64,000 bases of DNA, taken from IMG/VR virus record IMGVR_UViG_3300034069_002177, positions 96,001 to 160,000 of that record; one strand, written 5' to 3'. Below are positions 8,028 to 35,909 of this stretch, piece after piece. The stretch comes from a virus. Its lineage: Duplodnaviria; Caudoviricetes. The number at the start of each line of letters is the position of its first letter. Position 1 is the first letter of the stretch. A program made the position numbers and the translations under genes. The notes beneath the pieces are model-generated. The model was not told the origin of the DNA. It saw only the letters and a program-made list of their open reading frames with translations, and did no database searches.

Positions 8028-8177
8028 CCAGCTAACTACCAAACTAGCAGATTGTGACTTTTTAGCAATACATCGCAAACCGTTTACGGTGTCATTTGGT
8101 TGTGACAAGATAGACCTCACAACAAAGCCGAGGGGTAATACCGCTCTCGGCTCCCACGAAAGTTCTAAGGAGAGTTT

Positions 8178-8447
8178 ATGAGTTTGGTACTAGATAAGAT
8201 TGCAGAAGTTAAGGTGATTACTCGTCCGAGTTGCCAGCCTTGTAAAGCGACTATTCGTAAGTTCGGCTCATATGATCTCACCATCATCGACAGCGCAATC
8301 GAACGTGAAGAAGCCCTCGCTCTCGCCGCCGAGGTTGGTTACTTGGCAGCACCTATCGTAGTCGTTTACGCCGAGGATGGAACGATCATTGATCACTGGA
8401 CAGGATTCAACCCTGACCGTATCAATGCCGTTGTCGGTGCTAACTAG
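8178..8447 (+). CDS. nrdH: NrdH-like glutaredoxin
   Basis: TRPSCQPCKAT (CxxC), APIVVV and DHWTGFNPDRI; AAGGAG RBS. Confidence 0.9.
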   Translation: MSLVLDKIAEVKVITRPSCQPCKATIRKFGSYDLTIIDSAIEREEALALAAEVGYLAAPIVVVYAEDGTIIDHWTGFNPDRINAVVGAN

Positions 8448-8543
8448 GAGGTGATCCCTGTATCTCGGTTGCGGGTTTAGTAGTACCTGCGATAAACAGG
8501 GAAGCACAGCTAGACCCGCAACTGTCAGGGTTCACCTTCTAGT
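8443..8543 (+). ncRNA. Candidate rod-shaped structured RNA of about 100 nt
   Basis: 8443-8460 pairs with 8526-8543 (one G-U, one mismatch); 8468-8480 pairs with 8510-8522 (one G-U); apical CCTG/CAGG hairpin. Strand assumed. Confidence 0.55.
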
Positions 8544-8574
8544 CCACGATTCACCACTCATATAGGAGTAATAA

Positions 8575-9054
8575 TTGCCAAGACGACCAATTGCACAACC
8601 ACATTCCGTATCGCGCCGCGAACATCTGAAAATGGAACAGATAGGACTGAAAAGGTCTTTCCAATCAGGCGGGCGAAATCTGACGGAGGTTGAGTATGTC
8701 GGCTTGCACACTTTCCGCAAAATGCTTGCCAACCGTAACAAGAACCTCGGTGTTGCTGGTAGGCAGGTTTTGCGTGAACAAGCGGAGAGAAGCCGCAGTT
8801 TTGGAATTACGGAATTCGATTGCGCTGCTTGGTATGTTCTTTTCGGCGGTAATGAAACTCGCTACGAGAACGTACTTAATTCCGATATCGCGTTGATTCC
8901 TTTCGTAAAGTACCAGTCTGCTGGCGTCATGGATGACGACATCATTATCGAGTCACTCATCATCGGTCGTTCTGTTGAAGATGCCATTGCTGAGTTCAAA
9001 AAGCAGCACAACATCGTTCAGGATGAAGATTTCCTTTACGCCGAAACTGCTTGA
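8575..9054 (+). CDS. Hypothetical protein
   Basis: AGGAG RBS before a TTG start; 159 aa. Confidence 0.7.
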   Translation: MPRRPIAQPHSVSRREHLKMEQIGLKRSFQSGGRNLTEVEYVGLHTFRKMLANRNKNLGVAGRQVLREQAERSRSFGITEFDCAAWYVLFGGNETRYENVLNSDIALIPFVKYQSAGVMDDDIIIESLIIGRSVEDAIAEFKKQHNIVQDEDFLYAETA

Positions 9055-9910: not shown

Positions 9911-9956
9911 AAGAAAACAGCCCTCGGTGTATCAGCGCCGAGGGCTGTTTTCTTTT
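9911..9956. terminator. Intrinsic terminator
   Basis: AAGAAAACAGCCCTCGGTG / CGCCGAGGGCTGTTTTCTT inverted repeat with A and T tails. Confidence 0.85.
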
Positions 9957-25128: not shown

Positions 25129-25760
25129 CGTATCTCACCGTCGTTCCTCTGAATGCTTACAGGGCGTCCACTAAGAAGATGCTGTCTTCTCGTCAAGTTG
25201 CTCACGCAACAGTGATGCAGTCATTCGCGCCCAATCAAAATCTCAATGACGCCGATTCAAGAGTTCTTTGGTCGCTTGATGTTTCGGGTCGAGACGTGCA
25301 ACTGACCATTCTGAGTCCAGAGCGGGCTTCTGTAGAGCACATTGTGGAGACCTGCGGATGGACAGCAGCGGGAGATTCTAGCTTCCAGCAAGTTGAATAC
25401 ACCCCGTTGGTTTCGAGTGTTGCAACAGGAAGTCAGTATTCATTTTCTGTCACAGTCAATCCTGTTATTTCGGTCACAGGAAGTTCCAAACGCATAGCGG
25501 TTTCCGAGAAAGACGTAGCTGCATGGGTTGCTTCTAAATTCGGGCGGGAAGGTATGAGAATTATCACCTCAGAAGTAATCTCGTATCGTATTGAATCCTT
25601 CAAACGAGGAAACGGCAAGGTCACTCTGGCGTTGGCTACCGTCACTGGGACATTCCGGGTTGAGGATGCATCAGCCACGCAAAAAGCTCTCGTTGCTGGG
25701 ATTGGTCGTGCCAAAGGATATGGCTGTGGTCTCATCTCACTCAACGAGCAATTAGTCTGA
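25125..25760 (+). CDS. cas6e: Cas6e/Cse3 crRNA endonuclease
   Basis: YLT..PLN, H..VM..F, RVLW.LD and the C-terminal Gly loop GIGRAKGYGCGL. Confidence 0.96.
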   Translation: MTYLTVVPLNAYRASTKKMLSSRQVAHATVMQSFAPNQNLNDADSRVLWSLDVSGRDVQLTILSPERASVEHIVETCGWTAAGDSSFQQVEYTPLVSSVATGSQYSFSVTVNPVISVTGSSKRIAVSEKDVAAWVASKFGREGMRIITSEVISYRIESFKRGNGKVTLALATVTGTFRVEDASATQKALVAGIGRAKGYGCGLISLNEQLV

Positions 25761-25765
25761 TTGGG

Positions 25766-25839
25766 GTGCTCCCAGTGATGGGATGTTCCTCCGTGATACC
25801 GACGTGACAAGAATTCCCCGGCACGCCGGGGTTGCACTC
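25766..25839 (+). CRISPR. Mini-array: divergent I-E repeat (25766-25790), 20-nt spacer (25791-25810), I-E repeat (25811-25839)
   Basis: R1 GTGCTCCCAGTGATGGGATGTTCCT (TCCCA/TGGGA stem); spacer CCGTGATACCGACGTGACAA; R2 GAATTCCCCGGCACGCCGGGGTTGCACTC (29 nt, CCCCGG/CCGGGG stem). Starts 5 nt after the cas6e stop. Confidence 0.8.
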
Positions 25840-25857
25840 CAATCAGATTCACTCAGT

Positions 25858-32145: not shown

Positions 32146-32170
32146 CCTTACGGATGAATTGGGAGTACGA

Positions 32171-32629
32171 ATGTCTAACGCTATCAACGCTTTAGACGTT
32201 CCTGTATCTCCCAATCTCGTTTACTTTTCCTCCGTGTCAGAGAACACCAAAAGGTTCGTTGACAAACTAGGAATTGAAGCAGCACGCATCCCTCTGACCA
32301 GAAATGAAGCACCACTAATCGTGGATGCTCCTTATGTCCTGGTCGTCCCTACCTATGGTGGGGAAGTAAATCCAGAGACGGGCAAGATTGATAACGCTGT
32401 TCCGAAACAAGTCATCAAGTTCCTCAATGAGGAAAAGAACAGAGGACTGATTCGTGGCGTCATCTCAGCAGGAAACAGAAACTTCGGTGAAGCCTACTGT
32501 GCAGCAGGCAGCATCATTGGCGGTAAGTGCAAGGTACCCGTACTTTACCGTTTTGAACTAATGGGTACTATCGACGATGTAGAGCAAGTCCAAGAAGGGT
32601 TAAAAGAATTTTGGCAAACACAGCAGTAG
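32171..32629 (+). CDS. nrdI: NrdI flavodoxin
   Basis: [35 protein letters not shown] and FELMGT. Confidence 0.97.
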
Positions 32630-34830
32630 ACAGTAAGAACGACGGAGCTTCATTCAAGAGAACGCAAGTAGATATTGCGGATATTGACGAGCGGGCAGAA
32701 GAGATCGCTCGCGTGACGGAGGGCTTGGATTACCACGCCATCAACGCGATGCTCAATCTCTATGACAAGGACGGCAAGATTCAGTTCGACATGGACAAGG
32801 TGGCAGTTAAACGCTACTTCCTTGACAATGTGAACAAGAACACGGTCTTCTTCCACGATCTTCGCGAGAAGATCGATTATCTAATCGAGAACGAGTATTA
32901 CGAGGCGGCAGTCATCGAGCAGTATGATTTCTCCTTCGTGAAGGGTCTGTTCAAGCAGGCTTACGCACACAAGTTCCGTTTCCCCACCTTCTTGGGTGCG
33001 CTCAAGTATTACACCTCCTACACCCTGAAGACGTTCGAGGGCGACAAGTTCCTAGAGCGTTTCGAAGACCGAGTTTGTGTCACCGCTCTCTACCTCGCAC
33101 GCGGCGACGAGAAGCTTGCTTCCGCACTTGTTGACGAGATTATCGGCGGACGATTCCAGCCTGCAACCCCCACCTTCTTGAATGCTGGTAAGGCTCAGCG
33201 CGGTGAACTCGTATCGTGCTTCCTTCTTCGCATCGAAGACAACATGGAGTCCATCAGCCGCGCCATTACGTCCTCACTTCAGCTTTCCAAGCGCGGCGGT
33301 GGTGTTGCCCTTAATCTTTCGAACCTTCGTGAGACCGGTGCGCCCATCAAGAAGATCGCTAACCAGTCGAGTGGTCTCATCCCCGTCATGAAGATGCTCG
33401 AAGACGCATTCTCCTACGCCAACCAGCTTGGTGCTCGTCAGGGTGCAGGTGCCGTCTACCTCAATGTTCACCACCCTGACATTCTGCGCTTCCTCGACAC
33501 CAAGCGTGAAAACGCCGACGAGAAGATCCGAATCAAGACCCTTTCACTCGGAGTTGTCATTCCCGACATCACTTTCGAGCTTGCAAAGAAGGGTGAAGAC
33601 ATGTACCTCTTCTCGCCCTACGATGTCGAGCGCGTCTACGGCATACCTTTCGGTGATATCTCCATCAGTGAGAAGTACGACGAAATGGTGGATAACTCAC
33701 ACATCAAGAAGTACAAGATCAATGCTCGTGAGCTTTTCCAGACCCTCGCTGAGCTTCAGTTCGAGTCCGGTTACCCGTACGTTATGTTCGAAGACACCGT
33801 GAACCGTGCCAACCCCGTCAAGGGTCGCATCAACATGTCCAACCTTTGTTCTGAGATCCTTCAGGTCAACACGCCTACCACGTACAACGCTGATGGCAGC
33901 TACGACGTAACGGGTAAGGATATTTCTTGCAACCTCGGTTCGTTGAACATCGCTATGGCGATGGACTCGCCCGACTTCGCAAAGACCATCGAGACTTCCG
34001 TTCGTGCACTCAGCGCTGTTTCGGACATGAGCGACATCGGTTCCGTACCCTCCATCGAGTACGGAAACCAGTCATCTCACGCCATTGGTCTCGGTCAGAT
34101 GAACCTTCACGGTTACCTCGCTCGCGAGCGTATCTACTACGGTTCTGAAGAAGGTATTGACTTCACCAACATCTACTTCTACACCGTTGCTTATCACGCT
34201 ATCCGCGCGTCCAACATCATCGCCAAGGAGACCGGCGAGAAGTTCGGTGGCTTCGAGGACTCGAAGTACGCTACTGGTGAATACTTCACCAAGTACATCG
34301 AAACTGAGTGGAAGCCCGCCACGGCTCACGTTGCAGAACTGTTCGCTACTTCTGGTATTCAGATTCCTACCCAGGAAGACTGGAAGAAGCTTTCGAAGTC
34401 TGTTCAGAAGCACGGTATCTACAACCAGAACCTCCAGGCTGTACCGCCTACTGGTTCCATCTCATACATCAACAACGCAACCGCATCGATTCACCCCATT
34501 GCGGCTCCCATCGAAATTCGTAAGGAGGGTAAGCTCGGTCGCGTCTACTTCCCCGCTCCCCACATGACGAATGATAATGTCGAGTTCTACCAGGATGCTT
34601 ACGAAATCGGCTACGAGAAGATCGTTGACACCTACGCAGCAGCAACCCAGCACGTCGATCAGGGTCTCTCGCTTACCTTGTTCTTCATGGATACTGCTAC
34701 AACACGTGACATCAACAAGGCTCAGATTTACGCATGGAAAAAGGGCATCAAGACCCTTTATTACATCCGTCTTCGCCAGCTTGCGCTAGAAGGCACTGAG
34801 GTTGACGGTTGCGTTTCCTGCACCCTCTAA
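32611..34830 (+). CDS. nrdE: Class Ib ribonucleotide reductase alpha subunit
   Basis: [37 protein letters not shown] and TLYYIR; exact start codon uncertain. Confidence 0.97.
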
Positions 34831-34835
34831 TCTAG

Positions 34836-35909
<1,074 letters not shown>

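Follow-up and report, generated by a model that had tools for sequence, protein, structure and literature searches.

A conserved non-coding sequence directly after an nrdH-like gene raises two questions: whether it encodes a genuine RNA structure and, if so, what such an RNA might do for the element that carries it. We addressed them in a 64,000-nt stretch of DNA (positions 96,001 to 160,000 of the IMG/VR record IMGVR_UViG_3300034069_002177; henceforth the window), for which an original prediction had proposed a rod-like RNA containing a complement of the 16S rRNA 3' end, acting as a small RNA, ribosome decoy or switch. The record (202,737 nt, classed as a provirus in IMG/VR) is part of a 654-kb contig, and its relatives are found on contigs that reach 495 and 536 kb. 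It encodes 64 tRNAs and one tmRNA, and the closest matches of its NrdI are actinobacterial proteins. The carrier is a giant mobile element of actinobacteria, belonging to an uncultured family of 0.5–0.65 Mb.

The rod lies between two genes of a short unit (Table 1). The TIGR02194 score of the upstream nrdH-like gene is below the curated cut-off of 85.75 bits; nrdI-nrdE-nrdF (32159–35909) are located 24 kb away, and in host loci nrdH was found directly before nrdI in 73 out of 80 cases. The putative promoter motif lies 70–77 nt ahead of the nrdH start in six lineages with the rod and 35 nt ahead of it in L121, which has no rod (these being all seven readable lineages). We also noted a hairpin in the nrdH 5' UTR (8126–8152), the 3' arm of which retains CUCGG in 6/6 readable rod-bearing lineages even when the 5' arm has mismatches; the same CUCGG is invariant in the rod, and L121, with its shorter nrdH UTR, is also without this hairpin. 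A search for pairing between the nrdH 5' UTR and the rod gave no conserved duplex. For the downstream orf159, Pfam and NCBIfam gave no significant match, and fold searches with its structure model (pLDDT 78) found no fold match, which does not imply that the fold is novel. Its true start is a TTG/ATG 19 codons before the ATG picked by gene callers, and all homologues, the one in L121 among them, share an N-terminal SRRE motif. The terminator closing the unit served as a control for sequence conservation: in four relatives the terminator-like hairpin at this place is built from another stem sequence, and L024 has none. Given the promoter motif before nrdH and the terminator three genes later, the rod is probably contained in a single polycistronic message running from the nrdH promoter to position 9954.

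Table 1. Features of the nrdH unit and of the rod (window coordinates).
Feature	Position	Strand	Basis or remark
Putative extended -10 promoter motif of the nrdH unit, TGnCAnnAT	8103–8111	+	Motif only; candidate promoter
nrdH-like redoxin gene, 89 aa, CQPC	8178–8447	+	TIGR02194, E 4.9e-9, 36 bits; stop codon inside basal stem of rod
Rod-shaped RNA (P1-L1-P2-variable loop-P3)	8443–8543	+	Fold z, covariation, independent distant copies L124 and L131
SD-like segment, complement of 16S rRNA 3' tail, 5' arm of P1	8446–8457	+	Duplex in 8 copies, paired in all
Invariant 5' core: CUG, loop L1 (U)AUCU, P2 start	8458–8474	+	One regular expression fits 8/8 full copies; predicted RNase III cut (register c3) between 8467 and 8468
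Apical hairpin CUG-C-N5-A-CAG	8486–8500	+	Kept in 8 copies, absent in L131
Invariant 3' core ending GUCAG	8516–8528	+	In 9/9 copies; predicted RNase III cut (register c3) between 8524 and 8525
A/C-rich linker with GGAG SD (8565–8568) of next gene	8544–8574	+	Unconserved; 34–52% identity by length
orf159, conserved 159-aa orphan ORF, TTG start, basic N-terminus	8575–9054	+	Alignments
Intrinsic terminator closing the unit (sequence-conservation control)	9911–9954	+	Perfect hairpin and U tail

The rod folds with −62.1 kcal/mol (z −6.58), and none of 200 shuffled sequences folded equally well. It consists of a basal stem P1 (8443–8460/8526–8543; 12 bp, one U.U and 5 bp, i.e., 17 pairs), a 5x1 internal loop L1 (8461–8465 opposite U8525), a second stem P2 (8466–8481/8509–8524) and, above P2, a variable loop followed by P3 (8486–8489/8497–8500; 4 bp with a 7-nt loop). 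The 100-nt rod that had been proposed is confirmed and is not a chance fold; the stem given as 13 bp is present, but comprises 16 bp in the refined fold of the window copy. The three words highlighted in the original prediction are found at 8446–8457 (AGGAGGTGATCC), 8493–8504 (TAAACAGGGAAG) and 8515–8525 (CCCGCAACTGT). Owing to G.U pairs, the plus strand folds better than its complement in 6/7 copies. Among the 434 ORF ends of the record the rod is the second most stable fold, and it is the sole single unbranched rod of such length among the eight most stable. An AGUA/GAA loop-E-like motif below the apical stem, together with a GNNRA-type loop (8482–8503), was seen only in the window copy, L013, L022 and L032, and is lost elsewhere.

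Syntenic loci, collected via homologues of both flanking proteins, yielded nine rod-bearing sequence types: the window, L012/L034, L013, L022, L024, L032, L033, L124 and the 5'-truncated L131, with L012, L024 and L033 forming one close group. The rod is placed at the nrdH stop codon in all nine (for L131, as deduced from the downstream gene). The copy in L124, whose downstream protein is only ~41–43% identical, was recovered by a covariance model built without it (48.5 bits, E 1e-9), and the L131 fragment scored 26 bits. In an unfitted alignment 97% of cells are paired and two-sided change is seen at four pairs, compared with 1.7 in shuffles; in a model-fitted alignment that includes L124 these values are 96.5% and 12 pairs versus 3.0, a count that is biased towards the model and takes in some misaligned columns of P1. 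The changes in P2 were checked by hand and are compensatory (U-A to C-G, C-G to U-A and G-C to A-U), with three states at pairs 12 and 14. P2 is uninterrupted over 13–16 pairs in all eight full copies, and P1 has 17 bp in four of them, is interrupted in three (window, L013 and L124) and is lost to the contig end in one.

Conservation extended to the sequence itself. Identity with the window copy is 90–100% for the core around L1 and 65–91% for the whole rod, whereas it is only 41–60% at four-fold sites of nrdH. A single consensus (CUG, (U)AUCU, CGGYUGYGG, CUG-C-N5-A-CAG, CCRCARCYG, U, CAG) describes 8/8 full copies; L131 retains the 3' core and P2 without the apical hairpin. In the L121 lineage nrdH and the same downstream gene are 11 nt apart with no rod between them, which makes the rod an optional module. 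The rod is therefore a conserved, covarying structured RNA under purifying selection around L1, and not for shape alone, with its structure, strand, fixed position and possible absence all demonstrated. The proposal of an undescribed structured RNA in the nrdH 3' region accordingly stood up to comparison of homologous intergenic regions, where pairing is conserved with compensatory changes and, at variance with a plain terminator hairpin, the sequence is kept.

It matches no catalogued family. Covariance-model searches of Rfam at E≤10 with the window copy and four relatives returned nothing beyond microRNA-type and leader hairpin models that scored far below cut-off, in line with the claim that the RNA is undescribed; SRP RNA, 6S RNA, T-box and Y RNA models did not match these five sequences, and no Ro60 gene was found in the 203-kb record. 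There are no further rod copies in the record, no matches to the rod RNA or orf159 in cultured phages and plasmids, and no true matches in pattern scans of viral and genome collections (25 matches of a 20-mer all belonged to one unrelated prophage sequence). The rod was not found in genomes sampled from two host families (151 + 151), and the idea that it is a relic of the host nrdH-nrdI spacer was rejected on its absence from 73 host spacers and these 302 genomes. A literature search found no description of it. We conclude that the rod is a genuine RNA motif, hitherto undescribed and without an Rfam entry, which covaries across independent lineages and has a natural deletion. One weak match, in L130 (E 0.009), is an inverted repeat without L1 and was taken as chance; it is nearly perfect over 24 bp with a 7-nt spacer (L130:1500-1555, in a host-family genome), resembles two abutting insertion-sequence ends and has 14 nt in common with P2 of L013. 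Several Beutenbergiaceae/Actinotalea nrdH-nrdI spacers (L047, L048, L051, L059, L069) have in common a hairpin flanked by ACCCTGCG and CGCAGCACCA, which the covariance model R1 indicates to be unrelated to the rod.

What, then, might the rod do? Our leading but tentative reading, to which we assign a probability of roughly 40%, is that it is a cis-acting, sequence-specific intercistronic site for processing or binding by host RNase III, as predicted from its sequence and architecture. For the E. coli enzyme, PMC1540722 gives a helix minimum of 11 bp, A/U at pb2, G-C at pb1 and a U.G/U-A distal box. The helices on both sides of L1 reach 11 bp in most copies (P2 in 8/8), and, by these E. coli rules applied to an actinobacterial host, one register (c3) alone of the eight tested places A/U at pb2 together with G-C at pb1 on each strand, and does so in 8/8 copies. 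The cuts that it predicts (Table 1), the 3' one at the loop edge, are in two-fold register and would leave a 2-nt 3' overhang. The pb2/pb1 match has a chance probability of 0.0155 per register, or ~0.12 over eight registers, with the copies being related to each other; L131 shows the same letters. Invariant pairs are clustered within ~10 bp on each side of L1, as might be expected of the footprint of an RNase III dimer. On the other side, P1 is interrupted in the window copy, L013 and L124, the distal box corresponds to the E. coli optimum in only 2/8 copies (window and L032), the pair at pb3 is other than the preferred one, and pb4 holds a G-C, which acts as a catalytic antideterminant in E. 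coli, from which all of the box rules are taken. PMC10126417 reports that Streptomyces coelicolor RNase III cuts at the internal loop of an intergenic hairpin and favours G-C-rich helices, and PMC1540722 that loops can restrict cutting to one strand, leaving a protective 3' hairpin. Since a strong consensus is lacking among RNase III sites (PMC8708148), another explanation is needed for the AUCU, which is unpaired yet invariant, and for the C-N5-A loop at the apex. No RNase III gene was found in the 203-kb record, which covers only one third of its parent contig; the enzyme would have to come from the host or be encoded elsewhere on the contig.

Under this RNase III reading, the enzyme would bind across L1 and make one or both of the c3 cuts, splitting nrdH from the downstream genes and uncoupling their half-lives. 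Because the nrdH stop codon sits in the basal stem, a ribosome terminating on nrdH could melt P1; the downstream message, once cut, would thereby come free and the SD-like segment would be uncovered. As an RNase III site does not account for the invariant loop bases, a second ligand probably reads them, or else a small RNA may be released.

Judged by analogy, the mechanism is most likely a familiar one, similar to that of the T7 R1.1 site or the S. coelicolor rpsO-pnp hairpin. Like R1.1 (PMC1540722, PMC8708148), the rod is a stem with an internal loop in the polycistronic message of a mobile genome, with helices of at least 11 bp, A/U at pb2 and G-C at pb1 in the predicted two-fold register, and a U.G/U-A distal box in two copies. 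It differs in being about twice as long, in its 5x1 loop with the long strand on the 5' side, in its G-C at pb4, and in having an extra conserved apical hairpin and a basal stem that holds the upstream stop codon and the 16S-tail complement; the likeness drawn here is one of architecture, and cleavage of the rod is a prediction. The rpsO-pnp hairpin (PMC10126417) is likewise actinobacterial and intergenic, and is cut by RNase III at its internal loop, tuning stability. Unlike the rod, it has a 4x4 loop, is chromosomal and takes part in PNPase autoregulation, and it has no Rfam or sequence match to the rod. Neither of these two sites, in the descriptions consulted, has a stop codon and 16S complement in its basal stem.

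The 16S complement was examined separately. As had been claimed, the 12-mer complements the 16S tail exactly, here the actinobacterial tail read from two host-type genomes, and it is base-paired within the rod (in the window copy its mean probability of being unpaired is 0.09 and opening it costs 24 kcal/mol). It occurs once in the 203-kb record, with a chance expectation of ~0.02 by rough estimate, and is the strongest 16S-tail complement there (−23.4 kcal/mol, next best −20.0); at 204 other ORF ends the best pairing was −14.4 kcal/mol. The exact 12/12 complement is found in 2/8 copies, while pairing over 10–12 nt is kept in 8/8 (−19 to −23 kcal/mol), and at three of the four variable positions every change is compatible with a G.U pair. 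The segment is buried in every copy (probability unpaired 0.001–0.11). Selection for 16S pairing and selection for P1 are inseparable here, because the 3' arm of P1 imposes the same bias. The original prediction had also seen no well-spaced start codon after the 12-mer: there is indeed no AUG, GUG or UUG at a suitable distance, but a CUG lies at 8458, 5 nt after GGAGGU. A comparable case is the STAB-SD of Bacillus thuringiensis cry3A (PMC4113751), an SD-like 16S 3'-end complement without a standard start codon; STAB-SD is exposed near the mRNA 5' end, whereas the rod segment lies ~330 nt away from the putative promoter, shares bases with a stop codon and is enclosed in a 17-bp stem. Mimicry of rRNA beyond the 16S tail was rejected, with no match longer than 10 nt.

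Among the alternatives, an independent small RNA processed from the nrdH 3' region, which would use L1 and the apical loop to bind or titrate a protein in trans, is unlikely. In its favour are the invariance of unpaired bases, the pairing of the 5' and 3' ends as seen in stable RNAs, the loss of the module as a whole in L121 and the 64 tRNAs plus tmRNA of the element. However, the rod is always tied to the nrdH stop, is present in a single copy outside the RNA island, yielded neither a promoter nor a terminator of its own in a consensus scan, and is found without its apical hairpin in L131. We regard as quite unlikely a ribosome-coupled role, in which termination on nrdH would open P1 and the freed SD-like segment would hold a 30S subunit as a STAB-SD-like stabiliser or decoy. 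The retained 16S pairing, with its G.U-compatible changes and its rank in the record and among ORF ends, argues for such a role, as do the melting of most of P1 when +9 nt are held open and the retention of GGAUCACC in the 3' arm of L131. The cost of opening the buried segment, its partner arm (which would impose the same bias), the rarity of the exact 12-mer, the position away from the 5' end (unlike in PMC4113751) and the unaffected ribosome-binding site of the next gene argue against it, and support for the proposed ribosome decoy is weak. A composite device, in which the ribosome would unzip the stem, the 16S complement capture a 30S subunit and the loops bind a dedicated protein, or from which a small RNA would be released, seems comparably doubtful. 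Improbable, too, is an operator at which orf159 or another RNA-binding protein of the element would regulate its own expression: the loops are invariant, the rod always precedes orf159, and the first 30 residues of orf159 are basic in rod-bearing lineages (K+R 7–9, D+E 2; in L121 6 and 3), but orf159 has no fold match, the contrast depends on one rod-less lineage and the rod leaves the orf159 ribosome-binding site untouched.

That the CUG might initiate a leader peptide (M-YLGCG...) from a strong SD appears very improbable: it does follow GGRGGU by 3–5 nt in 8/8 copies, and three compensated changes in P2 pairs 1–10 fall on third codon positions (post hoc p ~0.03, an estimate), but the frame is shifted after codon 1 in L013, length ranges from 27 to >60 aa with no conservation beyond codon 6, and both SD and CUG are buried. 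We attach just as little credence to a plain terminator or generic stability hairpin. The rod is very stable and follows a stop codon, and its missing U tail would be tolerable, given that actinobacterial terminators may be without one; the element's own terminators, though, are short, perfect, U-tailed hairpins whose stem sequence drifts, and a plain terminator is excluded because selection acts on the sequence of the rod and not only on its shape. The suggested cobalamin riboswitch, or a relic of one, has a negligible probability. In the window copy two short words are similar to the aptamer core, yet the first is exact only there, and the second varies and is locked as one strand of the covarying P2; the rod is unbranched, without the multi-helix core of the aptamer, lies 3' of nrdH, and matched no cobalamin covariance model of Rfam at E≤10 (window and four relatives). 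Nor did folding bear out a switch that controls the ribosome-binding site of the next gene, the accessibility of which is unchanged when P1 is opened.

If the rod is an RNase III site, it would provide a conserved natural substrate with predicted cuts for a poorly defined actinobacterial enzyme, and an unusual coupling of translation termination to processing. Should its buried 16S complement be in use, a mobile element would have a new route to engage host ribosomes, and, if the termination-gated reading is true, the rod would be a ribosome-binding RNA in a giant element with its own tRNA set and tmRNA. The rod family is small, and its neighbour orf159 is without an assigned function.

Several further identities were tried and rejected. 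A type I toxin mRNA with a sequestered SD does not fit, as the CUG-frame peptides vary in frame and length and are not hydrophobic; stop read-through or a ribosomal hop into orf159 is contradicted by a variable post-stop frame and an in-frame TAA before orf159. A 10-base identity between the nrdI coding start (32200–32209) and the L1 strand is within chance by rough estimate. Read as a tRNA guide, the rod 3' arm matched host tRNAs (a partial set) at best at 10–12/17 positions and out of register, compared with 15/17 for a control guide; a 15/20 match to the element's own tRNA-His occurred only in three related copies and failed on host tRNAs. The rod also lacks the handle geometry of the element's type I-E crRNA (repeat hairpin, 8-nt handle and 20-nt guide to tRNA positions 34–52). 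The repeat-spacer-repeat unit adjacent to cas6e (25755–25848) is likewise enclosed by a long basal stem that starts at a stop codon.
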